A stretch of DNA of 35,219 nucleotides from a virus (taxonomy: Duplodnaviria; Heunggongvirae; Uroviricota; Caudoviricetes), in the IMG/VR virus record IMGVR_UViG_2548876867_000017, positions 1 through 35,219 of that record; one strand, 5' to 3'. Below are positions 3,345 through 25,050 of this stretch, in pieces. Both the position numbers and the translations under genes were made by a program. How positions within the stretch are numbered: position 1 is the first letter of the stretch; each line of letters starts with the position of its first letter. The notes under the pieces are model-generated. The model did not search any database. It was not told the DNA's origin and worked only from the letters and a program-made list of their open reading frames with translations.

Positions 3345-3382
3345 GCGGCCTAAATCGACGTATAACGAGCTAAAACAGTTAA

Positions 3383-3405
3383 GGGGTACATCCGTACCCC
3401 TTTTT
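3383..3405. terminator. hairpin terminator between convergent genes
   Basis: GGGGTAC-ATCC-GTACCCC perfect hairpin followed by TTTTT on plus strand, between recombinase stop and stop of 3418..4416. Confidence 0.6.
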
Positions 3406-3417
3406 AATTTAATTGTA

Positions 3418-4416
3418 TTAAAGAGCCTCTAAAGGGCTTAAATCGAGTTCTAAGTCTTCCGGTGTTAAATCAGCTAACGGTGCATTCATCCACTGCGATA
3501 AATCTCGTTCTATGTCTTCATCACTAATGTAGTTGTTCAGATTGATTGCGTTGGTATCATCAAAATACATTGGCTTAGATGGGTTGGTGTGGATGTATTC
3601 ATTGATGAATGATTTAACATCTTTCAGCTTGCTAATCGGTAGCGTTTCTGTGAATCCGCTATTCATTACCTTACGTGGGATTTTCTTGCCCTGAATATTC
3701 TTTTTAATCCCCATTTCTAAATCACCAGCTTTCCATCCAATGTTAAACAAATGTGAGCATTCAAAGGTGATTTTCTCGCTGGTGTGCTTCTGGTGTTCTC
3801 TTACCCGTTGCATCGGATCTTTGCGAGTGGTAATTCCATATTTGAAAAACTTCTCGCCAACACGAATTAGATAAAAGTGCATAGGGCGCTGTGCAAACTT
3901 GTTTCTGATAACCTGTTTTCTACCATTCTGAATTGATTTAAGTACACCCCTAACCAAAGGGCATGTTAACCCGCCTTGTCTGCGGTTATTGTGTAAATCA
4001 CCTTTCTTGTGAATCTTTCCGTGGCACTTACAACGAAGAATTAGTTTAGTGTCAACACCCTGATAAGGTTCAGCCAGACCTAACACATCCCACCCTATCG
4101 GCTTGTAGAACTTGCGAGCGTTTTCTAAGTGTTCTTCTTCGGTAAATCTAAACTTCTTCTTAGGCGGTGATACTCTATCTTTGCCAGTAAACTGACCAGT
4201 TAGAACATGACTAATACATGGCGTTTTAACCTTTCCGTTAACTTCTATGCAAACTTTGGTGTTCTGGAATGGTTTCTTTACAGGAAGCACAAAACCACTG
4301 TATAACCACCCATGCACTTGACAAACTTTAATGATTCTGGTTTCATATTCGACCGGAGGGGTCGCACGTTTGCTTTTTGCGGTAAATTCGATATCCTTTG
4401 CTAAAGTAGTATTCAT
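3418..4416 (-). CDS. putative homing endonuclease-like protein with GIY-YIG-related (T5orf172-like) motif
   Basis: Internal segment HFYLIRVGEKFFKYGITTRKDPMQRVREH resembles the T5orf172/GIY-YIG-like signature; Cys/His cluster CKCHGKIHKKGDLH; RBS GAGGA upstream. Confidence 0.45.
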   Translation of the reverse strand: MNTTLAKDIEFTAKSKRATPPVEYETRIIKVCQVHGWLYSGFVLPVKKPFQNTKVCIEVNGKVKTPCISHVLTGQFTGKDRVSPPKKKFRFTEEEHLENARKFYKPIGWDVLGLAEPYQGVDTKLILRCKCHGKIHKKGDLHNNRRQGGLTCPLVRGVLKSIQNGRKQVIRNKFAQRPMHFYLIRVGEKFFKYGITTRKDPMQRVREHQKHTSEKITFECSHLFNIGWKAGDLEMGIKKNIQGKKIPRKVMNSGFTETLPISKLKDVKSFINEYIHTNPSKPMYFDDTNAINLNNYISDEDIERDLSQWMNAPLADLTPEDLELDLSPLEAL

Positions 4417-4462
4417 AGTAGTGAATCCTCAATAAAATAATATTCACTACTATTTATAAGAA

Positions 4463-4834
4463 TTAATTATTGTAGTTTTGGAAACCAGTAAGATCACAAA
4501 ATGAATCAGTGTCATGTGCTGGGGAACGGTGTTCTGCCTCATCCGAGAAAATGTTGGCAACCGGAGATTCCACTTTAACTTCCGGTGCTTCTTCAACATC
4601 TGACTTGACTTCTTCGACCACTGGTTCAACTGCTGGAGATTCTTCTTTTGCTTCTTCAATGACGATCTCAGGTTCTTTCATTGCTTCAACCAGAGACGGA
4701 TCAACTTCGTCGAATACCACTTTATCATCTGCGGTGTATTTGTCTATAATGAAAAAATGGTCAGAAATATAGCTAACGTCGCCAGCATATTCTAACAAAA
4801 AAGCGCCCACCAGAGGCGCTTTAATTTTATCCAT
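4463..4834 (-). CDS. hypothetical acidic protein (start uncertain)
   Basis: ORF-track TTG start at 4864 overlaps the upstream gene; ATG at 4834 overlaps the upstream stop (ATGGATAA), consistent with translational coupling; C-terminal half very acidic. Confidence 0.35.
   Translation of the reverse strand: MDKIKAPLVGAFLLEYAGDVSYISDHFFIIDKYTADDKVVFDEVDPSLVEAMKEPEIVIEEAKEESPAVEPVVEEVKSDVEEAPEVKVESPVANIFSDEAEHRSPAHDTDSFCDLTGFQNYNN
4797..4820 (-). terminator. candidate intrinsic terminator or attenuator after peptidase gene
   Basis: AGCGCC-loop-GGCGCT hairpin followed on minus strand by a T-run, just downstream of the 4827 stop; lies inside the next ORF, so may attenuate rather than terminate. 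Confidence 0.35.
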
Positions 4835-5180
4835 TCCACCGTGATTTTTTTGATCTGGAATCAATATGCGTAAAGGTTTTATATTTTCCTAAGCCGTATT
4901 GAGTAGGATATTTCCCATCAAGATAAGCATGAACAATATCAGGCGAGACACCCTTGATAACAATGTCAGCCGCGCGGCCTCGAACGTGATAGCTATTGGC
5001 TGCCCCGCCTACATTCTTGTTATGAGTCGGGCAACGGTTGCCACTGTTAATAATCACTGGTTTACCGAAGTGCTCTCGTACATCCTCAAGAATCACCAGT
5101 AATTCAGCGTCGATTGTATCATAATCACATTTTCCGCATTTACATTTAAATTCCTTGCGAGAAAAATGCTTACTTAACAT
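4827..5180 (-). CDS. peptidase M15-family cell-wall hydrolase (candidate endolysin)
   Basis: Motifs YHVRGRAADI and THID typical of zinc D-Ala-D-Ala carboxypeptidase-like M15 peptidases; RBS AAGGGGG. Confidence 0.6.
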   Translation of the reverse strand: MLSKHFSRKEFKCKCGKCDYDTIDAELLVILEDVREHFGKPVIINSGNRCPTHNKNVGGAANSYHVRGRAADIVIKGVSPDIVHAYLDGKYPTQYGLGKYKTFTHIDSRSKKSRWNG

Positions 5181-5189
5181 ATTACCCCC

Positions 5190-5537
5190 TTAGATCATTT
5201 CGAAGATATAACCAATAAAGCGCATACCCTTGATATAATAAGGAGCAGTGCCTACACACACCGCGCGTGCATCGCCCAGACAGTTAAAGCTATAAGGATT
5301 AACCACATCAACTTCTTGTCCTACACGAAAACGATACTTAGGACGTTTAGCCAATGTAGCGACACAAAACACGGTCCCTTTTTCATGATCGCGGATACAT
5401 TCTTTATATTGTTTATGTTTAACTCTCTTCGCCTCAAAATCATGTGTCATAGATTCTGGGCTAATGCCATTAATAAAAATACCGGAAAGCTGATCGACCG
5501 GATAAGTAGGAAATTCAGTGAAAATATTTTTAGCCAT
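5190..5537 (-). CDS. hypothetical protein
   Basis: 115 aa ORF with RBS GGGGGT; tightly packed in the leftward operon. Confidence 0.55.
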   Translation of the reverse strand: MAKNIFTEFPTYPVDQLSGIFINGISPESMTHDFEAKRVKHKQYKECIRDHEKGTVFCVATLAKRPKYRFRVGQEVDVVNPYSFNCLGDARAVCVGTAPYYIKGMRFIGYIFEMI

Positions 5538-5575
5538 GTTATACCCCCATAAGTTTCTATGAGGGTATTTATGGA

Positions 5576-6259
5576 TTAAACGTATTTCATGCGCGATTTA
5601 ATGTGCTTATTGATGTTTTCAAGCATCATTGCTTCGTTGCTTTCCCACGATCCTAGCGTCGAATAACGAGTAGAAATTTTATCCGATTTAACGGCAACAA
5701 TTCGCTTGCTCTGTTTCTGTATGCGTTTCTCTAAGCGACGTTTTGCCACCGCCGATCCATTCCTAGCGCGTTTGGTTCGGGATTTCTTAGGCTTGTACTT
5801 CTTCATGATAAAAGTCCCTTCCTTGTTCTCTACCTTGATGAAGTTGCCGTTTTCGAGGTTACGCATCATCTTACCGCCTTTGATGGCCTTAATGTTCCCG
5901 TGGGCGTCTAAGACCTTGCCGTTAGCGATTGGAACTAGCTTATTGATTTTGCCACCATCGAAATAGTGTTTCAGATAGTCATCCTGACTGCCGATCTTCT
6001 TGTCCTTATCCCTTGCGCCCTTGATGAAGATTTGGTGTCTCGTCCCTGATCGGTTCTTGTAGTTGGTATTACCTACAGCTTGCTGAGTCCAGCGAGTAGG
6101 TCTATCAACATTCTTGTTAATCTTCTTCTGGAGTGCTCTGGAAGCAAAGATCGCCCCTTCCCCTAGTGCCCTTTCGAATGTATCGGTTGCCTTTTCAGAC
6201 CATTGCCGTAACGCTTTCTTAGTCCTTAGAGCGTTTCGTTTATTGGTACTGGTTGCCAT
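5576..6259 (-). CDS. hypothetical highly basic protein
   Basis: 227 aa, Lys/Arg rich at both ends; RBS AGGGGG; stop abuts the upstream gene. Confidence 0.55.
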   Translation of the reverse strand: MATSTNKRNALRTKKALRQWSEKATDTFERALGEGAIFASRALQKKINKNVDRPTRWTQQAVGNTNYKNRSGTRHQIFIKGARDKDKKIGSQDDYLKHYFDGGKINKLVPIANGKVLDAHGNIKAIKGGKMMRNLENGNFIKVENKEGTFIMKKYKPKKSRTKRARNGSAVAKRRLEKRIQKQSKRIVAVKSDKISTRYSTLGSWESNEAMMLENINKHIKSRMKYV

Positions 6260-6260
6260 G

Positions 6261-6431
6261 TTAGCCCCCTAATAACGAAAAGACCCCCGCCAGTGTCCTT
6301 AGCAATTGTTCATCCACGGTCATAGCCGGGAGTTCAAGCCCAAAGGACGTTAGCAGAGGTCTAATAGCTACGTTATAAGTGAGGGCGACAATCAAGAGAT
6401 AACCAAAATATTTCTTAAGTTTATTCTTCAT
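6261..6431 (-). CDS. small single-pass membrane protein (holin candidate)
   Basis: Start moved to internal ATG at 6431 with RBS AAGGGGTG; 56 aa with one hydrophobic helix. Confidence 0.4.
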   Translation of the reverse strand: MKNKLKKYFGYLLIVALTYNVAIRPLLTSFGLELPAMTVDEQLLRTLAGVFSLLGG

Positions 6432-6450
6432 ATATTCACCCCTTTTATTA

Positions 6451-6729
6451 TTATTTTTGTCTGAGTAAATCGATAACTTGGTCAAATTTAGCGTCCATCG
6501 CAACCACTTTCTTCTCTATACCGTGTAGTGTTTGTTCCATTTGGTAAACACGTTCGGCAATCTGAGTATGGTTATTCTGCATCGTCTCAAACTTCTGGTT
6601 TAACAATGCGTCGCTGGATTCCAATTTAGATAACCTATTTTCTGTTGCTAATTGATTTCGGTGGAGTCTCCAAAGCCCACCGCAAATTAAGGCGATAACA
6701 CCGATACCGCCATATATAATTTCAGTCAT
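6451..6729 (-). CDS. membrane-anchored coiled-coil protein (i-spanin-like or lysis-associated)
   Basis: N-terminal TM segment IIYGGIGVIALICGGLW followed by predicted coiled coil; position next to holin-like and peptidase genes. Confidence 0.4.
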   Translation of the reverse strand: MTEIIYGGIGVIALICGGLWRLHRNQLATENRLSKLESSDALLNQKFETMQNNHTQIAERVYQMEQTLHGIEKKVVAMDAKFDQVIDLLRQK

Positions 6730-6782
6730 TACGCCCCCGATATTTTTATATAGTTTAATGGCAAAATTATTTAGATAAAAAT

Positions 6783-6816
6783 AATCCCGCCTAACTCAAA
6801 AGAATTAAGCGGGATT
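6783..6816 (-). terminator. intrinsic terminator after tail tip gene
   Basis: AATCCCGC..GCGGGATT 8 bp stem followed on minus strand by ATTTTTAT, directly after the 6835 stop. Confidence 0.5.
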
Positions 6817-6834
6817 AATTATTAGAATTAAATT

Positions 6835-9800
6835 TTAAGAAACAGAAATACCAGTCGCGGCTTTCTTAGTTACCATTACCGTTAGATCGCTGATATATGC
6901 ACTTGGGTTATAGTTGTTAACGCCCTTACAGTAAACTTCAAAAGTCATTGTTACTGCCCCGTGTCCGGCTGGCATGTCAATAACTCCACTGTACATACAG
7001 CCAGAAGTTGCAGTGCGATCATATAGAACACCACCATTTTTCTTAACGATTAGTCGGCAAGTATCCCAATGATCGCTACTTTCGCCACGACGAACAGACC
7101 CGTTATGATGAATCGCTGGAATCACTATTTGGCGATCGAATGGATGATCATCTTCGACCCTTACAGTGATTGCACCATCAGGCCAGTTTGGTTGGCGATG
7201 CGGGAAACTCCTACCAACCACTTTCACGAAGTCACCACGCACCTGATTAGCATCAAGCATACCCAAAATGCGGCAACTTGAATTAATCGTTACGTTGTTC
7301 ATTTCGCCGGAATCAGCCACCAAATGACCACGAATATTAGCGTGTCTAAAATGGCAAGTGCCATCTTTGCCAATATACCATCCATCGTTACCATTCCAGT
7401 TATAAGACTGGATATAGTTACCAATTTTAGCATTATCGATAGAGCCATCAATAATATGACCTGTTCCGATCTGTGCGTGCTGGATGTGAGCACCGTTAAT
7501 CTGGGCTGTGCCGATCTTAGCCGTAGTGATACTAGCATCACTAATCTGGGCGGTTCCGATCGCTGCATTACGAATCATTGCATTATCGAGATAAACCTTG
7601 TTATCTTCGATACCAAACGGACAAACTTCTGATCCGTCTTGTGGAGCCACCGCGATTTTATCAGCCGTAAAGATGATTCTCGTCGGTTGTGCTGGATCGT
7701 TGGTTGCGCTCATATGAATACCAGCCACGCGACCATCTGCATTAACTGCCAGATTATATTTGCTGTTAATGGTTCCCTTCAAAGCATCGATTTTTACATC
7801 TGCTTCCTGATTCACACCAGCAATCTTGCCATCCATTTCTACCCGAACTTGATCAATCTTACTTGCGCTTGCTGCCTCACTGGTAGCAATTGCTTGTTTC
7901 AGGGTAGTAGCGGATGCGCTAACTTCTTTGGTGATATCGCCTTTCAGTTCAGCTTTAACCTGATCAATCTTAGTTGCGCTGGCTTGCTCACTGGTAGCAA
8001 TCAGACTCTTGAGAGTATCGGCTGAGGCTTGGACCGTCTGCCCTGTCTCGGTAGTAATCTGTTTATGCATTGCATCAATCTTAGCATCGGCATTAGCGCC
8101 AGCTTGAGCAATAGCATCCGCGATGGTTTCATCTAAGCGATCTTGTAAACCGATCAGGTCTTCCAGTGCTTCTTTGTCCTGATCGTCCCAACTAATGGTA
8201 GATTTCATTTGCATGAAATACGGTTCGGACCAAACAGCATCATCCATACCGAAAATATCGTAGTGAGCACCACGGATATAATAATCACCGTCAGCAATAT
8301 CAAAGGAAGTATGGCTAACACTATTCGTGCTTACTGCCCTTGCATCTGAGAAAGTGTTATCGGTTGCATACTGGATGATTGACCCTGCATAGTCATGTTC
8401 TACGTCATCCGCCCAGCTAACAAACGCAGTATTAAAGCCACCACGCGCACTAAAACCTTTCATTGGCTTATGCTGTGGGTTAATAGCCACTAAACGCGCT
8501 GGGGCGCTTACAGAGTTGTTATAACCCTTAGCGGATACTTCTACCGTCAATTCACGGGAAAGGCCGTTAAACTGGTTCATATCGAGCGTATAGGTCCATG
8601 ATTCAGGATCGCGGGTACGGTACTGAATAGACTTACCAGCCTTGTTAGTTACCTTGATAATGTAGGCTTCAAACAGGTCACTAAACTTGTTAGCTTCATC
8701 GTTGATCATCACATCTAATTGTTGCTGATTGTCCCATTCAATAATCAGATCGTTGCCTTCGAAAGTACCAGGTGAACTACCCTGATTTTTGATTCGAATA
8801 ACCGGAGTCGGCAATTCATAGGTAACAGTAGGATTCTGGTTAACCAGTTCCACCCATTCGGAACGAGCAATAATACCGAAAGCACAAACGCGGTAATCGT
8901 AGGAGCGATCTTTTGCCAGTGCATTGATATTGAAAATTTGCTGTGAAGTCTGTCCCAGCTTAATCCAGTTAGGTGATCCACTCACACGATAATCAATCTG
9001 GAAACCGTAGCGGTTGAAATCTTCCGGTGCATCCCATGTCAAAGTTACGTTTTTACCGTGGATTGTCTCACCAGTTGCCTTAATTCTGAAATTAGTCGGT
9101 TTCTGTACTGTCATTGAATCCGGTAAACCAGTAGGTCTATTGTCTGGAGTCGCCGCATAGTTCAGGTCAGTATAAACCTGAGAATTATATTCTGTGGCGG
9201 TGATCGTCATCATCCCAGCAATACCAGAATCAATAGAACGATCAATTGCAGTAATACGCCAAAGTGAATTATTCAGTTTTAATTCATCATAGGTTACGCT
9301 AATAACATCCCAAACTTCGGCAGTGAATGCGTCAGTAGTCATAAAGCTGATAACCTGAGTGATACGAGATTTATTTCGTTCAATACTCGCGAGTTTATCA
9401 ATCTGGGCTTTAGACTTAACAAAACGATATTCAATATCTTTAGCGATAATTCGACCATCTTGACGAATAGTAGCATCGTTTTCAGCATCAGCCGGATAAC
9501 GTAGCATTTGCTCTGAATAGTCGATTGATGGTTCTTGATACATCGCGTTAATGGTATTGAAATAACCGTTAGTGCCACCTGTTTTCAGTGATACCTTACC
9601 CATCATGATATTGTCTTCATTGAAGGTATGCTTAACAATATCAGGAGCATCCAGTTTCAGAGTAATACGTCCAAAGGATTCGAACATTACCCCGCCGAAA
9701 GTCTGCATAAGACTGGTCAAGTTCTCTTTAAAGCTGGCGTTCGGATCACATGCACCGTTTGAATGTAGGTCCATCTGTCGTACTTGTTTACGTACTTTCA

Positions 9801-10581
9801 GGAATGAATCAACGTTAATGTTTTCAATTGGTACGGATAAGCCATATTTTTCATTTGTTAGGTAGTGGAAAATCTGATCCACGCCGTTAGTGCTAGCCTC
9901 AATAGCATTGGTTTCGAGGTTACGGATTTTTAAGCCCATAACATCTACTGCCACTTGGCTATTTGGCTGGAGAATATCAACACCAGCAGCCAAAGATTTA
10001 TCGTCACGACGTAACACAATACACATGGTTGCAATGCCGTTACCCTGATACCGATCATCCCAATCAGCGCCCAAATGATGTTTAGCTAAATCCAATGCGG
10101 TGTTAGGATTTTTACCAGTGCGAAACTCGACTTCTAAAACTTTGCGATACTCGTCTTTAATGTTTCCTTTATCGAGAATGCCATCACGAATTGTCATATT
10201 CTGGCTAATGAGAACGTTTTTATTATCGATGTGCAGTGCTTTAAAGTGATCGATCTCACCTTCGGCAATAGCAAAAATTTGTACCAGTTTGTTATTTTCA
10301 CGCTGTGAAATTGCTTTGTAAACGCAGATTGCACCCGTGCGGGTAGTACCGAAAAGAACGGGTAATACTGTCTTAGGATCGTTTGATGTTCCTAGTGTCA
10401 CCGCATTATCTGGGCTTTGTACTTTCGGTGTTTTTGGTGCGCCTACAGTGGAAGCGATCAAGGTCATTGCACCAGCAGCCATACCGATAGCGACTGCGGT
10501 CATAACAGAAAATGTTGCGGCTGCCGCCATCCCCGCCGAAGCACCAGCGATCACCGCGCCTACCAATACTTCAAATCCCAT
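6835..10581 (-). CDS. central tail fiber / host specificity protein (lambda gpJ-like) with gpI-like N-terminal segment
   Basis: 1248 aa; C-terminus (DDHPFDRQIVIPAI, VIDMPAGHGAVTMTFEV, ends ATGISVS) matches the lambda J receptor-binding domain as I recall it; N-terminal Gly/Ala hydrophobic stretch plus LPVLFG resembles gpI C-terminus; TAATG overlap with upstream gene. Confidence 0.8.
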   Translation of the reverse strand: MGFEVLVGAVIAGASAGMAAAATFSVMTAVAIGMAAGAMTLIASTVGAPKTPKVQSPDNAVTLGTSNDPKTVLPVLFGTTRTGAICVYKAISQRENNKLVQIFAIAEGEIDHFKALHIDNKNVLISQNMTIRDGILDKGNIKDEYRKVLEVEFRTGKNPNTALDLAKHHLGADWDDRYQGNGIATMCIVLRRDDKSLAAGVDILQPNSQVAVDVMGLKIRNLETNAIEASTNGVDQIFHYLTNEKYGLSVPIENINVDSFLKVRKQVRQMDLHSNGACDPNASFKENLTSLMQTFGGVMFESFGRITLKLDAPDIVKHTFNEDNIMMGKVSLKTGGTNGYFNTINAMYQEPSIDYSEQMLRYPADAENDATIRQDGRIIAKDIEYRFVKSKAQIDKLASIERNKSRITQVISFMTTDAFTAEVWDVISVTYDELKLNNSLWRITAIDRSIDSGIAGMMTITATEYNSQVYTDLNYAATPDNRPTGLPDSMTVQKPTNFRIKATGETIHGKNVTLTWDAPEDFNRYGFQIDYRVSGSPNWIKLGQTSQQIFNINALAKDRSYDYRVCAFGIIARSEWVELVNQNPTVTYELPTPVIRIKNQGSSPGTFEGNDLIIEWDNQQQLDVMINDEANKFSDLFEAYIIKVTNKAGKSIQYRTRDPESWTYTLDMNQFNGLSRELTVEVSAKGYNNSVSAPARLVAINPQHKPMKGFSARGGFNTAFVSWADDVEHDYAGSIIQYATDNTFSDARAVSTNSVSHTSFDIADGDYYIRGAHYDIFGMDDAVWSEPYFMQMKSTISWDDQDKEALEDLIGLQDRLDETIADAIAQAGANADAKIDAMHKQITTETGQTVQASADTLKSLIATSEQASATKIDQVKAELKGDITKEVSASATTLKQAIATSEAASASKIDQVRVEMDGKIAGVNQEADVKIDALKGTINSKYNLAVNADGRVAGIHMSATNDPAQPTRIIFTADKIAVAPQDGSEVCPFGIEDNKVYLDNAMIRNAAIGTAQISDASITTAKIGTAQINGAHIQHAQIGTGHIIDGSIDNAKIGNYIQSYNWNGNDGWYIGKDGTCHFRHANIRGHLVADSGEMNNVTINSSCRILGMLDANQVRGDFVKVVGRSFPHRQPNWPDGAITVRVEDDHPFDRQIVIPAIHHNGSVRRGESSDHWDTCRLIVKKNGGVLYDRTATSGCMYSGVIDMPAGHGAVTMTFEVYCKGVNNYNPSAYISDLTVMVTKKAATGISVS

Positions 10582-11000
10582 TATTCACCCCCGAATCTAT
10601 AAACTTGTTCATAGTCAATGTCTGAAACAGGAATGGTCATCCAGATACCATCTTCTTCAACGAGGCCATAACCGGAATAATGAGGAACTACGGAATAATA
10701 TTTGCGGTTTCCTAATTTGTGGGCTGTGACCAGTAAGTCGCCGTCCTGTAAATCATCAGTGACTAATTTGAAATGTTTCTTAATTGGTTGAAGGATATTT
10801 GAATACCCGCTTAATTCTTTGCAGATTTTCAAGCCTTCTTCTTTAGTTGAATATTTTTTATAAAGAGAATTATATAGGTCAGTACCAGCGAGAATATCGA
10901 TGATCTTACATGCAATTAGATTGCAATCATTCTCGCCTTGAACGAACTCCTGACCTATTAAAGAATTGATGTAATCGGTGATAAGCCTAGTTTTTAGCAT
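10581..11000 (-). CDS. tail assembly protein, NlpC/P60-like (gpK-like)
   Basis: Start moved to ATG 11000 with RBS GGAGGT; Cys motif GENDCNLIACKI and downstream His resemble an NlpC/P60 fold; position just upstream of the J-like gene. Confidence 0.45.
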   Translation of the reverse strand: MLKTRLITDYINSLIGQEFVQGENDCNLIACKIIDILAGTDLYNSLYKKYSTKEEGLKICKELSGYSNILQPIKKHFKLVTDDLQDGDLLVTAHKLGNRKYYSVVPHYSGYGLVEEDGIWMTIPVSDIDYEQVYRFGGE

Positions 11001-16358: not shown

Positions 16359-16829
16359 TTAGACTTTCTGGAAAACAGCTTGTTTAACCGGAGCACCATC
16401 TACTACAAAGGTGAAGGTACGGCCTACTACAGCATCCTCACCACCAGTCATGGTAGTTTTAGACAGGAAGCCGTTATAAGCGATATGTACACCAGATTTT
16501 TTCGTAGCGTCGATGTAGTAAGCAATTTTAAGCTGTACGCGCTTACCGTCTTCGGTTGCTTTAATCAGTTTTTCGTGTACTTCGTTACCCGGCATGTAGT
16601 TGATCGAAAGTTCGATATCCGGTACAGACATACGACCAACCAGCTTACGGTTATACGGACCACCGAAGTTAGGAACATCGACAGTAGAACGTTCTACACC
16701 AGTTTCCGGGAAAGCCGCACATTCTGGAATTTCCAGATAGGTTTCAGCATCAAGGTCTTTATTGCTTACGTCTTCTTGCAGAAACAGACCAACGAGGCCA
16801 CCAGAAAAAATATCAAATTTAGTAGTCAT
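16359..16829 (-). CDS. major tail tube protein (lambda gpV N-domain-like)
   Basis: 156 aa; segment LSINYMPGNE..KRVQLKIAYY resembles the gpV tube-domain pattern; strong codon bias; directly upstream of G/T chaperones. Confidence 0.65.
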   Translation of the reverse strand: MTTKFDIFSGGLVGLFLQEDVSNKDLDAETYLEIPECAAFPETGVERSTVDVPNFGGPYNRKLVGRMSVPDIELSINYMPGNEVHEKLIKATEDGKRVQLKIAYYIDATKKSGVHIAYNGFLSKTTMTGGEDAVVGRTFTFVVDGAPVKQAVFQKV

Positions 16830-17828: not shown

Positions 17829-20800
17829 TTACCCTAATTTAGCTTCAATTGCAGCAAGACGTTCACGAAGAAGTTTATTTTCTTCGCTCATTTCTTGGAC
17901 CGCTTTAATTAAAAGCGCGTTCACTGCGGAGTTTGAAATTGTTAAAATTTCTTCTGGGTTATCAAGACCACCAATTTTTGCGGTTTTAACAGCTTCCGGT
18001 AATACCTCTTGTAAATCCTGTGCGATAATACCAATCTCATGACCTATAACTTCTCGGTCATTAAGAGATTTAACTTTATCGTAGGTTTTAACTTTGAGTT
18101 TATTTACCTTATCCACCGCATTTTCTTCGTAATCTTCAACATTAATTTTCAGACGACCATCGGAACGAATATAAACATCGTTAAAGTTACCATTACCAGG
18201 AGAATAGAAAGTACCATCATGATGGAACTCGAATACAGCTTGAGGATGACCAGCCGCTGGCGATGCCTCCGCAGACCCAACACGAATAATTGCTTGCCCC
18301 CAATTTTGAGGAACACGACGCATACCAAAATCGACGGCAGTTGTATACCCTTGATTGGTGATTAAACTTCTTCCTTTAATAATTGGATAATAGCTATCTG
18401 GTCCAACATAGCCATGATCGACGAATATTGGCGCTTCTAAGCCCCATTGATCACCCCAACCTCCAGATTGGCTAGCAGTCCAACGTTCACCATGAACATA
18501 GAATCGAACGTTATTGACATGGGTCATTTCGACGCCTTTTGGACTTAGCGCGATATCCCCCGCGTTTGTAATGTTTACAGCAGCATTAGTAGCATAACTA
18601 TAGAACGCTAATCCATTATCAGCACCACCTTTACCGATATACCAGTTGTTATTATCGGCACAAGTACCCAGCAAATATATAGACGAATCGCCACTTTCGG
18701 CATTCATGATGATTGCATCAGATCCGCGATTAACTTTCAGTTTACCAAAGAAGGAGTTTTTAATGGTATTATCGCCTAATCGTTCAAATTCAGCTAAAAA
18801 TCCTTTTGAGTCACGAAGACTTAAAACGTTATTTCGACCTGTATTGCTTGCCCCCCAATGGACAAGTTCCATATAGTCCATAGATTGACGAGAACCAGCT
18901 TTAAAGAAAAGGTTGTCTTCAAGACGGGTACTACCATCAATTCCCAAATGCAAACAACGAGCAGTTTCAGTGCCACCTAAATCTAATCCACCTTCGGCGA
19001 AATCATAACTGAATGGTCTACGACTATTCCACGGTCCAAAGGAATCACCGAGATCTGTGGTAAGAATATGGAAACCAACACCATCATTTCTAAAAATTAA
19101 GCCATAATTGCCACCTTTAACAGCCAAACGAGCATTTTCAGATAATGCAACTTCGCTATTCATTACGATTTTCTGGCCTTTACCGCCAGTAATATGCAAT
19201 TCACCGTTTTCGATCAAGTTTATCGAGTTTTGACCGTTGTCGTTCCACCAAATAAAATCTTTGGTTGTTCCATCACCAAAACCAAACCAACCATTACGAA
19301 CATCTTGTCCAGTGCGATAATCCATGAAATTAAAATGGCTTGATTCGTTTGGTCCTCGACGAATATCAATACCAGAATTTCCACCAACACCACCATCCAA
19401 TGTTAATTTCTTGACATGTAACCCGGATGTTACTGTCAGCAATAATTCCTGGTTTGTATCTTCGTATCCAGTAGCAAGACGATATGCGTTATCATCAACT
19501 GTCTCATGCCAGATTGTAGCTGGTGCACAACTACGGAAGCGACGCAACATCTTTTTAGCATTTGTCGGTTGTTCGTTTAAATGCTCAATATCATATTGGC
19601 CTTGATGATTGCCAGCAAAATTTAACGTCCCACGGTTGCTAAAGTTATTGAACGATGAAATGTTAAGAGCATCAAAAATTTCATCTGCAACAGGTTTTTC
19701 ACCACCCAGATATTCAGGAGTATCCAACAGGTTTAAAGAAACACCACCGGAAGAAACTTGATATTCTGCTAAAACAAATCCTGTATGTGCACCGTAGTAA
19801 GCGTAAAGATCGTAATTATCACCATCGGTAGGAATTGCACAAAAATGTTGTTCGTGATACCAGATGCTATAATAAGCATTGAATACAACACCTTTCGGGC
19901 TATTGTTGCCGCATCGAATCACCAGTTCGATAATATTGGCTTGTCCATTCTGTCCGACGTTATAACCGTTGCCACCAACTAAGCGGATCTTAGCACTACG
20001 ACCGTGTTGCTGTGGCAGTGTTAAACTACCGAGTTTAAACCAACCGCCCTCGATCCCAAAATTAAGCGTCTTCTGGAACAGTCGGTCAATTTCTGCTTTC
20101 GAATATGCGCCAATTTCAGCCGGAGTAGGTTTATCACCTTCGTGATACATGCGGTGAGAATATGACAAGTTACCCAATTCATCGTAGCCGTATGTTTTTA
20201 CAGTCGGAACAACGTTAGAACCATATGTAAAATCAAAACCGCGAGAATGATTTAGACCGCTAGGATGTGGCACATGCAAAGCTAATGCCAAATGACCATC
20301 CATATCATTAGTACGGAATGCACCAAAATAATCAAGGTTACGCGCACTTGGATCATCAAAATAGTTTGCGGTCTTAGACAGCAAATAGCCATCAGTGTAA
20401 GTGTTTACGTGCTTTTTGATGTACTTGCCATCAGCAGATCCATCGGCTGCATCAATACGGCTTTCTAAGCGTGCCAGTTCGGAATCAGTGTAAGACTTGT
20501 TATTGTCAACTTTGCTATGAATTGCTGTATTTTTGGCCTCAACATCACGGGTTAATGCTGCGACGTTATCCGCTGCCTCCTGCTTATTGGCTGCAATCAC
20601 ACCAGCAAGATGATTGTAAGTGTCGGTTAACTGATTTCCCGCATAGGTTTTATTTGCTGCGATAGTGCGGTCAGTTTCTGCCTTAATCAAATCAACCTTG
20701 TCATTAATTGCTTTGTGATTGCTTGCGATGGTTGCATCAGTACGGGATTTAATATCATCAACTTTTTTATTGATGCGGGTGTCCAGTTCCTGTGTTGCTA

Positions 20801-21239
20801 CAGCAGCCGCATTTTTATTAGCATTGATAGTATCCGACAATTCAGCTTTAACACCAGCAAGGTCGGAAGCAGCTTTATTTTTATTGGCATCGATTGTCGC
20901 GTCGGTTTCGCGTTTAATTACATCAACTTTATTGTTAATTTCTGCGTGATTTGCTGCGATAGTAGAATCAGTAGTTTGTTTAATTTCATCTACTTTAGCG
21001 TGAATATTGCGGTCATTTACTACAATTGTGCTATCCAGTTCTTTTTTATTAGCATCAACTTTAGATTCTAGTGCCGCGTGAGTTTCAGGAGAAACAGAGA
21101 TTTGAACTACTTCATGATCTCGGTCTTTGGTAAAAATAACATGGTCTTTAAGGTTGATTGCTACCTCACCGACCTGTAATTGTTCCGGCGTTGGTTTTTT
21201 GCCAGAAACATTAGTTCGTTTAAATTGGATTGATTGCAT
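17829..21239 (-). CDS. side tail fiber protein with C-terminal intramolecular chaperone (peptidase S74-like) domain
   Basis: 1136 aa; N-terminal periodic KVDxIKxxTDxTIxANK repeats; C-terminal about 110 aa (SDGRLKINVEDYEENAVDKV...LRERLAAIEAKLG) matches the auto-cleaving chaperone domain of endosialidase / T5 L-shaped fiber type; RBS GAGGTG. Confidence 0.85.
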   Translation of the reverse strand: MQSIQFKRTNVSGKKPTPEQLQVGEVAINLKDHVIFTKDRDHEVVQISVSPETHAALESKVDANKKELDSTIVVNDRNIHAKVDEIKQTTDSTIAANHAEINNKVDVIKRETDATIDANKNKAASDLAGVKAELSDTINANKNAAAVATQELDTRINKKVDDIKSRTDATIASNHKAINDKVDLIKAETDRTIAANKTYAGNQLTDTYNHLAGVIAANKQEAADNVAALTRDVEAKNTAIHSKVDNNKSYTDSELARLESRIDAADGSADGKYIKKHVNTYTDGYLLSKTANYFDDPSARNLDYFGAFRTNDMDGHLALALHVPHPSGLNHSRGFDFTYGSNVVPTVKTYGYDELGNLSYSHRMYHEGDKPTPAEIGAYSKAEIDRLFQKTLNFGIEGGWFKLGSLTLPQQHGRSAKIRLVGGNGYNVGQNGQANIIELVIRCGNNSPKGVVFNAYYSIWYHEQHFCAIPTDGDNYDLYAYYGAHTGFVLAEYQVSSGGVSLNLLDTPEYLGGEKPVADEIFDALNISSFNNFSNRGTLNFAGNHQGQYDIEHLNEQPTNAKKMLRRFRSCAPATIWHETVDDNAYRLATGYEDTNQELLLTVTSGLHVKKLTLDGGVGGNSGIDIRRGPNESSHFNFMDYRTGQDVRNGWFGFGDGTTKDFIWWNDNGQNSINLIENGELHITGGKGQKIVMNSEVALSENARLAVKGGNYGLIFRNDGVGFHILTTDLGDSFGPWNSRRPFSYDFAEGGLDLGGTETARCLHLGIDGSTRLEDNLFFKAGSRQSMDYMELVHWGASNTGRNNVLSLRDSKGFLAEFERLGDNTIKNSFFGKLKVNRGSDAIIMNAESGDSSIYLLGTCADNNNWYIGKGGADNGLAFYSYATNAAVNITNAGDIALSPKGVEMTHVNNVRFYVHGERWTASQSGGWGDQWGLEAPIFVDHGYVGPDSYYPIIKGRSLITNQGYTTAVDFGMRRVPQNWGQAIIRVGSAEASPAAGHPQAVFEFHHDGTFYSPGNGNFNDVYIRSDGRLKINVEDYEENAVDKVNKLKVKTYDKVKSLNDREVIGHEIGIIAQDLQEVLPEAVKTAKIGGLDNPEEILTISNSAVNALLIKAVQEMSEENKLLRERLAAIEAKLG
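17832..18164 (-). other. predicted self-cleaving intramolecular chaperone domain of the tail fiber
   Basis: Begins at the conserved Ser of RSDGRLK (Ser codon at 18162-18164); expected to be removed after fiber trimerisation. Confidence 0.6.
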
Positions 21240-21312: not shown

Positions 21313-22146
21313 TCAGTATTCCCCGAAATCGATCCGGTCATGGATAGAAACGGCTTCAATCTCGGCTGGTGTCGGTTTTTCTTCCGTGGAATACACTTTC
21401 ACCCATCCAGAATTACCGTCTTTCTGGACTGTGCGAACTCGTAAACGTGGTGCGCCGGAAGCGGTGCAAGTTAATTGCCATCCACCATCTTCATTAGGTT
21501 GAACGTGAATTAGTGAAGTATCAGCACTAAATGGGTTAGATGCGCTCGATCCCTGATAAGTTACGAAACGGTTTCCGGCTAATGCTTCGCTATCAATCGG
21601 ACCCGTGAATGGATTTACACCAGCACCCAAACCAAAATCACCTTGACGTAAGATCCGGCCTTCGGTAGCAATACCGCGATCTAGAATCCCGCCATCAGGT
21701 TCTAATTTAAACTCGATTGTAGTAACTTTGTTATCACCGGATTTTGTTTTATGTGACGAGACATAAGCGTCAAAAATGACGTAGTAACCTGTGTTAGCAG
21801 CACTATAGCCAGAGTTCACAACATAGAACATACGAAAGCGTAAAGGAGTTTTATCATTCACCGCTTTCATCAACATGTCTTGATGTTCGTCATCCAGAAC
21901 ACGGTTTACTACTAACGTAGTTGATTCAAGTTTACGATAGCCAGCAAGTTTACCCGTAGCGTCCTGATCATACTCTTCTAACGTCTGGATCTCTGTGGAT
22001 TCGGTTAGCGTAGGGAATGCTGCGACGTTCTCGATAGGACTAAATGCAGGATCGAAAAAGTCCGGCTGGTTATCCACCATAGTAGACACGGAGACTTCAA
22101 CATGCGACCCCGTGAAAATGTCTAAGTTATCTTGTGTAATATTCAT
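21313..22146 (-). CDS. structural protein with fiber-like KPTPAEI motif
   Basis: 277 aa; C-terminal EEKPTPAEIEAVS resembles GDKPTPAEIGAYS in the tail fiber; RBS AAGGGGT. Confidence 0.5.
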   Translation of the reverse strand: MNITQDNLDIFTGSHVEVSVSTMVDNQPDFFDPAFSPIENVAAFPTLTESTEIQTLEEYDQDATGKLAGYRKLESTTLVVNRVLDDEHQDMLMKAVNDKTPLRFRMFYVVNSGYSAANTGYYVIFDAYVSSHKTKSGDNKVTTIEFKLEPDGGILDRGIATEGRILRQGDFGLGAGVNPFTGPIDSEALAGNRFVTYQGSSASNPFSADTSLIHVQPNEDGGWQLTCTASGAPRLRVRTVQKDGNSGWVKVYSTEEKPTPAEIEAVSIHDRIDFGEY

Positions 22147-22155
22147 TATTACCCC

Positions 22156-22578
22156 TTAAAAACGCGCTACATAAGAAAATTTAAGGCTAAGTGTCCCAAC
22201 GATACCCCCATCACTAGAATCATCGTCATAATCGGTATTAGAAGCTACTGGAGTGATATCTGAAATAGAGAAGCCCAAATCTTTAAAACGTGGGTTATCC
22301 GGCTGAATCTGGATTATCTGGCAAATACCCTCATGAATTTTTGTTTCATGAATCTGAGAATATAATTGCATTTCGATAACGCATTCAGCTTGCATTGCAT
22401 TACCACCACGGACCCTATTGTAAGTCTCATTCATTCCGGTAATCCAACAAACCACGTCATCACTAAAGCCTTGCTGAGTTTGTTCTACGTTTAAAGCCAG
22501 ACCTAAATCTTGTTCGATAATATCCTGCAAGGCGCGTTTGATTTTCAGTCTAGGCATATTATTAACGGTAGCGAGCAT
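22156..22578 (-). CDS. hypothetical head-tail joining protein
   Basis: Start moved to ATG 22578 with RBS AGGGGG 7 nt upstream (ORF-track start 22659 overlaps upstream gene by 98 nt). Confidence 0.45.
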   Translation of the reverse strand: MLATVNNMPRLKIKRALQDIIEQDLGLALNVEQTQQGFSDDVVCWITGMNETYNRVRGGNAMQAECVIEMQLYSQIHETKIHEGICQIIQIQPDNPRFKDLGFSISDITPVASNTDYDDDSSDGGIVGTLSLKFSYVARF

Positions 22579-22852
22579 GTGTACCCCCTGCACGAGCAAT
22601 AAAGCAATCAGAAGTATTATCACCATTGCGCTTAACGTATTGAACTTTGAAGCGTTCACCGTCTACAATGACAACATCACCCTGATTTAAGTCTCCCTCA
22701 CGACAAAATAGAAATTCTGATTCTGTAATTACCCCTTGTTCGTCGGTAGTAGTAATTTCATGGTAAGCACGAATTGATTTACCACCTTCCACCGAAAATA
22801 CAGGAGCACTTTTAAACATTCTTGATAATTGTGATTCTGATAATTTGAACAT
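22562..22852 (-). CDS. hypothetical head completion / neck protein
   Basis: 96 aa; first gene after the capsid terminator; RBS AAGGGGG. Confidence 0.45.
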   Translation of the reverse strand: MFKLSESQLSRMFKSAPVFSVEGGKSIRAYHEITTTDEQGVITESEFLFCREGDLNQGDVVIVDGERFKVQYVKRNGDNTSDCFIARAGGTHARYR

Positions 22853-22882
22853 AGTTACCCCCTTTATGGAGTATTTACATAC

Positions 22883-22908
22883 AAAAAAGCCCCACCGTTA
22901 GGCAGGGC
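22883..22908 (-). terminator. intrinsic terminator after major capsid gene
   Basis: 8 bp stem with tetraloop followed on the minus-strand transcript by six U. Confidence 0.6.
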
Positions 22909-23043
22909 TAATTATTATTCTTTAGTTTTACGCTGTTTTTTAGCTGTGGCTTTCGCCTTAACCGTCTGGGATTCTTCTTCCGGTTCAGGAATCAGATTTT
23001 CTTCCCCCAAATCGGGGGAAGGTTCAGATGGTTCTACAGGAGT

Positions 23044-25050
23044 TCATTCAGCGGAGATGTGAAGAACTTTCAGCGCTTCCGGCTGGGTTACAACGTAATC
23101 CAGATCTACCCAGATACGCGGAACGATAGCAGACTGTGCGCGGTAGGTAGTGTCATCAATGTCAAGTTCCAGACCACCCCATTCACCGATGGTAATAGCG
23201 TCGAACGATCCCAGAACGATGTGGTCTACCGGAATAACACCAGAAGTAACTACGTCGTAACCAGCCAGTTTACCGTTTTCGATGATATAACCGGAAACGC
23301 CGTTATCTTTCAGGGTAGATTCCAGTTCAGCAGCAGTTGCACCGCTCATCGCAAACTTGATCGCCTGAGCAGGAACGCCAGCGTCCGTGAGCTTTGCAAT
23401 CTCCTTGAGGAAGTCTTTATAAGAGAAAGCAGCTTTCTTCTCTACGCGACCAGCATCTACCAGTTGTTTAATCACACCAGCCGGACCACGAGCATTTTCT
23501 TTGTCGGACAGAATCAGTTGTTCCAGTTTGATGCGAACAGCCTGGTTAATGTGATCAGTGATCAGGGTAGCGATGCCGGGTACGGTCTTGAGGCTAGCTC
23601 TGCTGATCGGATTCCCACCAGCAAACGTCTTAGGAGCCATTTTCACGTTTGCAAATTCAGCTTTACCTTCCGGCGCAGCACCGTTTTCATCAACGAAGCC
23701 GAAAGATTCAACGCTGGAAGCGGTCATTTTAGGAATAGCGGTCGGTGAAGTCAGACCAGACAGGACTTTCACACCAAGACGACCCAGAACGGATTCCGGC
23801 AACAGCATCGCTACATAGGAATCATTCAGCAGTTTTTCGTCGGTTACAGCGGTCAGAGTAGCTTTGGTGTTACCATCAGCAGCAGCACGCATAGCAGCAG
23901 TCGGAACGAATACAGAGCCACCGCGAGCAGCACGACCACGCTGCATAGTTGCAGTAGCAGCCATTGCAGAAAACTCGGCTTCGTGAGCACCCAGAGCTTC
24001 ACCATCTACCAGAGAGCGAATTACGTTGTTCAGGTCAAAAGTTTTTTCCATTTTAGAGTCCTTAATTTGTTGTTCGTTATTACGTTGAGCATTGGTAATG
24101 TTATTTAGTGCCTTAGTGCGGAATGCTTCCGGCGTCATATCTTTAATTGCCAATGCGCGTTCTAATTCTTCGTCGTTAATATTTAACTCACGAGCGATTG
24201 CTCGGATTTCTTCTTCGTCTTCTTCGGAACGTTCAGCCACTTCTTCGATTTTTTCTTCTTCAACCGGAGCAGCTTCACGTTCTTCTTTTACTTCTTCTGT
24301 TTCCCGAACAGTTGAACTATCATCATCAACACTTTCAGGATGTTCAGCGTCTTTTCCGTCTTCGAGATTTTCATCTTCTTTATTCTCTTCAACTTGGCGC
24401 TCTTGAGTTTCTTCTACTTCCGATTCTTTATTTTCTTCTACCGGAGTTTCTTCAACCTGAGCGGATTCTTGTTCTTCTTTGATTTCTTCAATTTGTTCTT
24501 TAGTCATATCGCGTTTAGCCTCCAAATTAACTGTGATAGTATTTAGAGAGCGATTTAAACCGACCGAATCGTCCGCCGGGACCGTAACAAAACTTAATTC
24601 GAAAGGAACAAACTTAGTAACAATCAATTGTCCTTTGGCATAATCGATGTGATATTCTTTAATGTCATAGCCGACAGAAATTTTTTCCATCGTACCTTCA
24701 ATGACCTTATTACGAATATCATTAGCCAAAGTGCCATGCTTAGAGAATCTAACGGTCGCACGGCCTACTTTATCCGCATCGATTCGAGCGTTACAAACGA
24801 CACCTAAATGATTATCGAAATTATGATTAAACAGCAACGGAGCGTTATTATTCAGACGAGACAGATCAACCGCTTCCGGTGTATGTATCAGAATTTCATC
24901 TAATACCACCATTTCTTGATTTTGCTCATCCCAGAATTGGCGCTGATAAGGCTGTTCACTGGAGAAAGCAATTTCAAATTCGTATTGATCGTTATGCCCT
25001 TCGTTAATAACTCCACCGTAACCGTTAAGTTCGCGGCGAAATTTAAGCAT
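23044..25050 (-). CDS. fused prohead protease - scaffold-like linker - major capsid protein (HK97 fold)
   Basis: 668 aa; N-terminus has HK97-type protease motifs (APLLFNHNFDNHLGVV, ISVGYDI, ELSFVTVPADDSV); acidic Glu-rich middle; C-terminal about 350 aa with capsid-like pattern and strong codon bias; RBS AAAGGTGA. Confidence 0.8.
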   Translation of the reverse strand: MLKFRRELNGYGGVINEGHNDQYEFEIAFSSEQPYQRQFWDEQNQEMVVLDEILIHTPEAVDLSRLNNNAPLLFNHNFDNHLGVVCNARIDADKVGRATVRFSKHGTLANDIRNKVIEGTMEKISVGYDIKEYHIDYAKGQLIVTKFVPFELSFVTVPADDSVGLNRSLNTITVNLEAKRDMTKEQIEEIKEEQESAQVEETPVEENKESEVEETQERQVEENKEDENLEDGKDAEHPESVDDDSSTVRETEEVKEEREAAPVEEEKIEEVAERSEEDEEEIRAIARELNINDEELERALAIKDMTPEAFRTKALNNITNAQRNNEQQIKDSKMEKTFDLNNVIRSLVDGEALGAHEAEFSAMAATATMQRGRAARGGSVFVPTAAMRAAADGNTKATLTAVTDEKLLNDSYVAMLLPESVLGRLGVKVLSGLTSPTAIPKMTASSVESFGFVDENGAAPEGKAEFANVKMAPKTFAGGNPISRASLKTVPGIATLITDHINQAVRIKLEQLILSDKENARGPAGVIKQLVDAGRVEKKAAFSYKDFLKEIAKLTDAGVPAQAIKFAMSGATAAELESTLKDNGVSGYIIENGKLAGYDVVTSGVIPVDHIVLGSFDAITIGEWGGLELDIDDTTYRAQSAIVPRIWVDLDYVVTQPEALKVLHISAE

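Follow-up and report, generated by a model that had tools for sequence, protein, structure and literature searches.

The stretch of DNA considered here, IMG/VR virus record IMGVR_UViG_2548876867_000017 at its full length of 35,219 nucleotides (the window), is a siphovirus-like prophage of about 35 kb of Escherichia coli and Shigella, and this work concerns the 3' end of its major capsid gene. The gene lies on the minus strand, with its ATG at 25050 and its last sense codon, GAA, at 23049–23047, and it ends in TGA (23046–23044) followed by an A (23043). Past this stop the same frame remains open up to two tandem stop codons and an intrinsic terminator. The initial annotation had drawn attention to this open frame and counted 44 codons in it; the frame is indeed open, although the number of sense codons is 42, the higher figure including the two stops. 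Based upon the comparisons described below, we favor, with a probability of roughly 0.7, the reading that the extension is translated by read-through of the TGA codon and maintained by selection. The coordinates of the relevant features are given in Table 1.

The 668 aa product had been described in the initial annotation as an HK97-type prohead protease, an acidic linker and a major capsid domain fused in a single open reading frame (ORF), and profile searches bear out this description. The N-terminal domain belongs to the prohead protease family according to the Pfam model PF04586 (Peptidase_S78; aa 40–162, E 1.5e-10, 41.9 bits against a cutoff of 21); the narrower protease model TIGR01543 scored below its cutoff (32.9 vs. 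59). Two motifs in this domain, LLFNHN (aa 72–77) and ISVGY (aa 124–128), are conserved in a 38%-identical homolog, and the His of the first and the Ser of the second may be the catalytic residues, by comparison with HK97 gp4. In the linker, 52 of the 120 residues are Asp or Glu, and its function as a scaffold or delta-like segment, which had also been proposed, is probable, as is its removal at maturation. The capsid domain was identified by PF05065 (Phage_capsid; aa 410–664, E 3e-22, 79.7 bits against a cutoff of 24.2) and by a match to the major capsid protein of roseophage vB_DshS-R4C (PDB 8gta_A, E 2.9e-23), the sole relative for which a structure is available. While the R4C gene itself matches over aa 13–661 of the 668 aa protein, the 268-aa chain in the structure aligns with aa 410–661 only; therefore, by analogy, the mature shell protein probably consists of the last ~270 residues, the protease and the acidic part being cut off. 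Matches to PHROG 617 ("major head protein"; aa 21–663, E 4e-87) and PHROG 4523 ("major head and protease protein"; E 3e-38) agree with this assignment, but a score of 125 against a cutoff of 525 indicates that the protein is not the protease/capsid fusion equivalog represented by NF045541. The fusion architecture is in itself ordinary and of a known kind.

Table 1. Features of the capsid gene and of the region downstream of its stop codon (window coordinates).
Feature	Position	Strand	Basis
Protease / acidic scaffold-like linker / major capsid fusion ORF, 668 aa	23047..25050	-	ORF list, Pfam, PHROG 617
Prohead serine protease domain S78, aa 40–162	24565..24933	-	PF04586, motifs
Poly-acidic linker, aa 181–300	24151..24510	-	composition
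HK97-fold major capsid domain, aa 410–664	23059..23823	-	PF05065, PDB 8gta_A
Stop signal UGA-A, preceded by GAA (Glu)	23043..23046	-	sequence
42-codon in-frame extension, encodes TPVEPSEPSPDLGEENLIPEPEEESQTVKAKATAKKQRKTKE	22918..23043	-	translation
Hairpin CUUCCCCC-GAUUU-GGGGGAAG, 8 bp, starts 22 nt after UGA	23001..23021	-	folding
Tandem stops TAA TAA closing the extension	22912..22917	-	sequence
Intrinsic terminator, 9-bp stem and T-run, 2 nt past the tandem stops; stem-loop 22909–22888	22882..22909	-	sequence

The peptide encoded by the extension is of low complexity and charged. Its first 26 aa are acidic and rich in Pro, with nine Asp/Glu and no Lys or Arg, and its last 16 aa are basic, with seven Lys/Arg. 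The tandem stops and the terminator are found at the end of the extension and not after the TGA, an arrangement as at a real gene end. In the window sequence taken alone, 42 open codons have a chance probability of 0.10 by either mono- or dinucleotide shuffling, in agreement with the value of roughly 0.1 in the initial annotation. The case against chance rests upon the relatives and upon codon usage. The other two sense frames of the window, +1 and +2, contain two and six stops after the TGA; a −1 frameshift in the window itself was rejected, as these frames are closed and the signals for such an event are present in the sister prophages L041, L107, L109, and L035 described below but not here.

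To examine the extension across relatives, we assembled a set of 56 loci with a capsid gene of this type (the window itself, 8 loci in complete genomes of E. coli, 32 contigs of IMG/VR and 15 contigs of metagenomes), which holds 30 nucleotide haplotypes of the extension corresponding to 26 distinct peptides. The stop codon is TGA and the next base is A in all 56 loci, over 13 flanking contexts, and frame 0 of the extension is free of stops in each of the 30 haplotypes. Frames +1 and +2 carry 1–2 and 2–7 stops per haplotype, respectively, and as 11 of the 12 stop columns are polymorphic, stops have been both gained and lost in these frames. The length of the tail is 28, 33, 42, 43, 44, or 45 codons, and the five indel events (48, 27, 3, 3, and 3 nt) are all multiples of three. 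The sequence that closes the tail is TAATAA, TGATAA or TAATAATAA in all relatives, and the terminator follows shortly after it. The feature that is kept is the composition of the tail, with an acidic, Pro-rich first part and a basic last part, and the net charge of the basic tip is +4 to +5 in four unrelated versions of it (KKQRKTKE, KKERKTKAK, KKVGRPPKAK, and KRGRKPKE). A tail of the same family, again behind TGA-A, is also present in the PE15-type capsid gene, whose product is 38% identical. When E. coli PE15 (L002, positions 2950–3210) is compared with the window (23100–22840), homology jumps to ~99% exactly at the TGA stop, which at the level of sequence places the mosaic joint between the PE15-type and window lineages at the gene end.

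Several observations weigh against the reading that we favor. The numbers of variable states at the three codon positions of the extension are 17, 22, and 21, so that there is no third-position excess, the ratio of nonsynonymous to synonymous change (dN/dS) is ~1, and nearly each nucleotide haplotype encodes a new peptide; the peptide is therefore either weakly constrained or under diversifying selection. Mean pairwise divergence in the extension is 0.176, compared to 0.10 at the third positions of the next gene (the spacer between the terminator and the ribosome-binding site is nearly invariant in the relatives, with a mean divergence of 0.015). The extension is purine-rich, due to which some other frames are also nearly stop-free; of the 30 haplotypes, 28 have an open antisense frame −0. 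About 4% of the possible substitutions in the extension make an in-frame stop, and the probability that ~60 neutral substitutions would make none in frame 0 is ~0.07. The haplotypes are mosaics of a few blocks, and the number of independent events is thus modest. The hairpin of the window lies 22 nt from the stop, which is too far for a classical stimulator. A search with the 42-aa tail peptide against 5.8 billion proteins gave no candidate, and no lineage in it shows the tail fused. Lastly, the support is that of sequence comparison, and read-through, its rate, incorporation of the extended form and its outward orientation are all inferred.

Much of this is also what would be seen if the stretch beyond the TGA were an untranslated 3' region, or the relic of a longer capsid C-terminus cut by an old nonsense mutation, which is kept as a structured RNA stabilizing the abundant capsid mRNA ahead of the terminator and whose frame is open owing to descent, purine-richness and block recombination. 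The chance probability of 0.10 for a single sequence, the lack of a third-position excess, the largely open antisense frames, the high nucleotide divergence and the absence of the peptide from annotated proteins can all be cited for this explanation, which we nevertheless regard as unlikely. It accounts poorly for the in-frame length of all five indels, for the absence of stops in frame 0 while the other sense frames gain and lose them, and for the placement of the tandem stops and the terminator behind the extension. On its own the evidence from the reading frame is moderate, and it becomes persuasive only in combination with the in-frame indels, codon usage, the anomalous stop codon and the sister clades.

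Codon usage was scored, in bits per codon, with a table for which 13 structural genes of the window were used. The frame-0 score is +0.44 for the long form of the extension found in the window and +0.42 for the 28-codon short form, compared to 0.36 ± 0.17 for in-frame windows of 42 codons and −0.72 and −1.19 for out-of-frame windows. The observed score was reached by none of 594 out-of-frame windows and, for both forms, by none of 3000 composition-matched shuffles that were free of stops. In the exact frame of the capsid gene, the extension thus has the make-up of coding sequence, which weighs against an untranslated region or a relic.

The choice of the stop codon is also unusual. Highly expressed genes of bacteria preferentially end in TAA, and this is the stop of 27 of the 29 ORFs on the minus strand of the window, mostly as TAA-T. 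The two that end in TGA are the capsid gene and a gene for a 277-aa protein, the latter terminating in TGA-T with a back-up stop three codons further on. In the capsid gene, the TGA is followed by A and the next stop comes after 42 codons, and it alone among these ORFs is followed by a long open stretch that does not belong to another gene. As translation in the prophage is probably heaviest for the capsid gene, its stop is the opposite of the design expected for such a gene, and a TGA-A in a prophage otherwise using TAA counts against the extension being an untranslated remnant. Of the three stops, TGA is the one with the greatest leakage in E. coli, and the residue mainly inserted at it is Trp (PMC11126739, PMC10570021). 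A following A is reported to make UGA especially prone to misreading by tRNA-Trp (PMC5289835), and back-up stops are found more often than expected close behind those genes of E. coli that terminate in TGA (PMC11126739).

As UGA read-through is a common background in E. coli (PMC11126739), it could also be argued that read-through of the capsid gene is real but is tolerated noise, selection acting only to keep the appended peptide harmless (i.e., soluble and disordered) and the tail having no function. The weak constraint on the peptide, with its dN/dS of ~1, and its low-complexity, charged nature would agree with this. However, any cost of read-through would be removed by a change of TGA to TAA or by an early in-frame stop of the kind that ~4% of substitutions create, and neither is found among the 30 haplotypes; the back-up stops for which the TGA genes of E. 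coli are enriched are also absent from these tails, and the other genes of the prophage have TAA. Additionally, the basic tip keeps its net charge across the four unrelated versions. In view of these points, and of the dedicated frameshift signals in the sister prophages that are hard to explain as noise, we consider a purely tolerated read-through to be improbable, somewhat more so than an untranslated region.

The RNA downstream of the stop has a potential to form hairpins in both forms of the extension. The sequence of the long-form hairpin is invariant in all long haplotypes (z ~−1.9). In the short form, an 11-bp hairpin with a GAAA loop begins 10 nt after the UGA and has a folding energy of ~−20 kcal/mol (z ~−5.2 to −5.7); in the locus L030 a U-A pair of this stem is replaced by C-G, a compensatory change. 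A third small hairpin, which is present in the variants with a GRPPK tip, similarly shows a change from GGUGG/CCACC to GGCGG/CCGCC. A pseudoknot between the loop GAUUU and a downstream AAAUC was considered and rejected as sterically implausible. Stable hairpins with two compensatory changes point to constraint at the RNA level, which can be counted in favor of the structured untranslated RNA discussed above. 3' stem-loops help read-through in several eukaryotic viruses, and by analogy the hairpins seen here may raise read-through of the capsid stop.

A hairpin downstream of a UGA also brings to mind selenocysteine insertion, for which E. coli has the machinery. This explanation, along with the related ones that the UGA is decoded by a phage suppressor tRNA or that the extension is a separate peptide made from an internal start, appears very improbable. 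No selenocysteine insertion sequence (SECIS) or other Rfam match was obtained at E-values up to 10, and the long and short forms have wholly different hairpins, with 22 nt separating the UGA from that of the long form. For a suppressor tRNA, the sole tRNA call in the window (by ARAGORN) is a doubtful tRNA-Lys located inside a gene. Lastly, the extension contains no ATG and no conserved GTG, TTG, or Shine-Dalgarno sequence, and a TTG codon for Leu that is present in it is replaced by TTA or TCG in relatives.

More distant relatives provide further information. In sister prophages, which are also located on E. coli chromosomes, including those of PSS-15 and strain 2021CK-01361, and whose capsid domains are 42–57% identical, the capsid genes all end in TAA. 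In some of them a short tail rich in Ala, Lys, and Glu is encoded directly in frame (GTPAEVKAALKASA, ...EKGTPAEVKAALKASA, ...GTPAEAKAAKQ, ...GEAEAGETRKAK, and ...AGAEAKSKA). In others, the zero-frame stop is found 1–3 codons past a Lys-Lys site, which forms a slippery heptamer in the correct phase, viz. GA-A_AAA_AAG in L041, L107, and L109 and A_AAA_AAA in L035, with a shorter A_AAG site in L140 and in Escherichia phage DCP80. In L041, L109, L140, and L042 the open −1 frame would encode a tail of 24 codons, and in L035/L036 and DCP80 shorter or longer versions of it. These −1 frame tails end 4–7 nt before the terminator, and the encoded peptides are alike (DGSLTDTGAQAAPVRKPRALKVTK, DGSVIDSGLKKTRVNKLRSRKVTK, DGSLIDTGVQKTPIKKARAQKSVK, and NGSLINTGEQASPAKVKKPRALKVK). 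In L041, L042, and L109, a long stem-loop is located 1–6 nt past the heptamer; its sequence differs in the three loci, and its fold is the same (z −2.1 to −3.6), with a compensatory change between L041 (ACAGGAGCA/UGCUCCUGU) and L042 (CAGGAGAA/UUCUCCUG). The candidate frameshift sites are located at 2880–2960 in L041, 2380–2460 in L109 and ~1660–1800 in L140 (E. coli PSS-15), and are also present in L035/L036 and L042. In RefSeq, the annotation of the sister capsid genes contains the short zero-frame product only. As regards DCP80 (L139, GenBank PQ671644.1), this record is classed as a 141-kb T4-like member of Straboviridae, and its positions 1734–10859 comprise a lambda-like terminase, portal, and protease-capsid module that is 45% identical to that of this prophage; the record may be a chimeric assembly.

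Judged from sequence, the layout in these sisters is that of textbook −1 programmed frameshifting, by which they appear to extend the capsid protein with a basic tail of 24 codons. From the in-frame and −1 frame tails together, the family as a whole appears to attach a basic, low-complexity C-terminal tail to its capsid protein, with two of the three routes predicted to serve only some of the subunits. That equivalent tails are encoded in the sisters, either in frame or behind canonical frameshift signals, is a further point against the stretch in the window being an untranslated or relic sequence. The initial annotation had left a choice between chance and a low-level read-through decoration tail. 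The conserved TGA-A, the open frame 0, the in-frame indels, codon usage and the sister clades all favor read-through over chance, and the function of decoration remains the inferred part of that proposal.

If the extension is produced by read-through, as we favor, most ribosomes would terminate at UGA-A via release factor 2 (RF2), and tRNA-Trp would occasionally outcompete this factor and insert Trp, presumably at a small rate within the per-cent range that is typical of UGA in E. coli. Translation would then continue for 42 more codons and stop at the TAATAA beside the terminator. The product would be a minor capsid species ending in ...HISAE-W-TPVEPSEPSPDLGEENLIPEPEEESQTVKAKATAKKQRKTKE, with the predicted junction VLHISAE-W-TPVEPSEPSPDLGEENLIPEPEEESQTVK, which would co-assemble with the major form into the shell, its protease and linker being cut away at maturation as would be expected by analogy with the R4C homolog. 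The C-termini of T7 gp10 and of encapsulins are outward-facing and located near the centers of the capsomers. By analogy with such C-termini, the tail is predicted to be a flexible or disordered, surface-exposed peptide that consists of an acidic, Pro-rich stalk and a basic tip. The 8gta entry contains seven chains, which fits a T=7 shell of ~415 subunits, and at a read-through rate in the per-cent range there would therefore be a handful of tails per head. In the P22 coat protein, which also has the HK97 fold, the C-terminus faces outward near the 5- and 6-fold centers and bulky fusions clash there (PMC9962691). As six C-termini meet at each capsomer center, a low occupancy by tails may likewise matter in this prophage.

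Our best guess for the role of the tail is binding to a polyanionic surface or an interaction at the capsid surface. An AT-hook was considered for the basic tip and rejected, as the tail of the window had no match to Pfam PF02178 and the GRPPK variants of relatives scored 14.2–14.7 bits against a cutoff of 17.4. The sub-threshold variants occur in L007, L013, L015, L019, and L023, where the tail ends in ...KKVGRPPKAK, and not in the variant of the window; they hint, if only weakly, at binding of the basic tip to DNA or some other polyanion.

The assignment of the window to a prophage of E. coli and Shigella is based upon its capsid proteins, chromosomal location and neighboring genes. Many assemblies of E. 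coli and Shigella contain identical or near-identical proteins that carry the annotation phage major capsid protein, those that are 100% identical being labeled "phage major capsid protein [Escherichia coli]." The capsid region is present in 54 of 5,426 complete E. coli genomes, in every case on the chromosome, and the element thus belongs to the accessory genome of this species. A near-identical prophage is that of E. coli ETEC4085 (NZ_CP122634), which shows 98.8% identity over an 841-bp query covering the 3' end of the capsid gene. The capsid gene is accompanied by genes for the large terminase, portal, head-tail joining protein, major tail protein, tape measure and tail fibers. Megablast of the capsid gene region against 50,697 phage records yielded no match, tblastn of the capsid protein found matches of at most 45% identity and no close cultured phage, and for 25 kb of the window the sole megablast matches were to tail-fiber segments of T-even phages. 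Of the two scans of species-representative genomes, that with a protein pattern found no relatives and that with a DNA pattern for the tail core gave four chance matches in unrelated bacteria.

Some other features of the neighborhood are of interest in their own right. The gene for a 1136-aa tail fiber (17829–21239, minus strand) shares 80–94% nucleotide identity over 2–3 kb with the genes for the distal subunit of the long tail fiber of T-even phages (KFS-EC, MIZ4, and G37-3), which suggests a recent exchange of a receptor-binding module between a temperate, siphophage-like prophage and the Straboviridae. Two ORFs on the minus strand (21313–22146 and 16359–16829) match the same major-tail-protein family, PHROG 158. 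The first of these, the 277-aa ORF, is located directly upstream of the tail-fiber gene and matches the family in its N-terminal half only, and it may encode a tail-tube-like protein with an added C-terminal domain. After the capsid terminator there are two small minus-strand genes of 96 aa (22562–22852) and ~140 aa (22156–22581), which overlap by 17–20 nt, have no PHROG match and are kept in all relatives; they likely encode head-completion or connector proteins of unknown family. The tRNA call referred to above is a 91-nt tRNA-Lys(UUU) at 22301–22391 on the plus strand, within a 141/167-aa ORF of the opposite strand, and is probably a false positive.

Several systems are known in which a capsid gene is recoded at its end. 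In tailed phages it takes the form of frameshifting (T7, A2, PSA), and UGA read-through is known only from the RNA phage Qbeta (Leviviricetes). The coat/A1 gene of Qbeta resembles the present case in that tRNA-Trp reads its UGA in E. coli with a frequency of a few per cent, giving a minor, low-copy, extended component of the capsid. However, Qbeta is a single-stranded RNA phage with an unrelated coat fold and an extension of ~196 aa that is folded and needed for infectivity, whereas here the tail, of 28–45 aa and probably disordered, would be added by a presumed read-through to an HK97-fold capsid of a double-stranded DNA (dsDNA) tailed prophage. The 10A/10B proteins of T7 and T3 share with it an HK97-fold capsid gene that is recoded near its end, yielding a substoichiometric form with a short outward C-terminal tail; they differ in using a −1 frameshift and not read-through, and T7 is a podovirus without the protease fusion. 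The sisters L041, L109, and L140 are closer to T7 in this regard than the window is. Lactobacillus phage A2 (gp5A/gp5B) and the Listeria phages PSA and A118 (PMC5009743) are, similarly, temperate siphophages that make a longer major head protein by recoding at the 3' end, but they do so by −1 or +1 frameshifts and not by stop read-through, in Gram-positive hosts, and the extended form of A2 is essential. Roseophage vB_DshS-R4C (8gta; PMC10276861) and the fusions of PHROG 617 and 4523 have in common with the present gene the protease-scaffold-capsid arrangement; R4C shows ~30% identity, and a recoded C-terminal extension is not reported for it. We found no report of stop-codon read-through in a capsid gene of a tailed phage in the literature, the coverage of which was incomplete and is not proof of absence. 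If confirmed, the reading favored here would amount to a natural and conserved case of UGA read-through in a dsDNA phage structural gene.

A broader possibility, which we hold only tentatively, is that this prophage family deliberately makes two versions of its capsid protein, and that its lineages within one host species reach the same tail by three interchangeable routes, viz. hairpin-aided read-through of UGA-A as in the window, −1 frameshifting at A_AAA_AAG with a stem-loop, and direct fusion. The fast-evolving tail, with its acidic stalk and basic tip, would then be a module for adhesion or polyanion binding. Since temperature, growth phase and cyclic AMP all affect how leaky UGA is in E. 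coli, the read-through route would make the count of surface tails on a virion depend upon host physiology. Under this reading, the window would also hold the first case of programmed stop-codon read-through for any structural gene of a tailed dsDNA phage.

If confirmed, these results would mean that gene callers systematically miss a component of the virion, given the absence of the tail from the protein collections searched, and they suggest a natural, low-copy display site on an HK97-type capsid. They would also provide a bacterial counterpart to the interchange seen in retroviral gag-pol, where related elements obtain the same downstream product either by read-through, as in murine leukemia virus (MuLV), or by frameshifting, as in human immunodeficiency virus (HIV) and Rous sarcoma virus (RSV), often with the aid of a downstream RNA structure. 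The retroviral systems are eukaryotic and involve UAG, a pseudoknot at 8 nt and an enzyme as the product, whereas here the alternatives would be found in prophage clades of one bacterial species. As these clades share a single host species and thus one translation apparatus, the rules that govern the choice of a recoding mechanism would be directly testable in E. coli.

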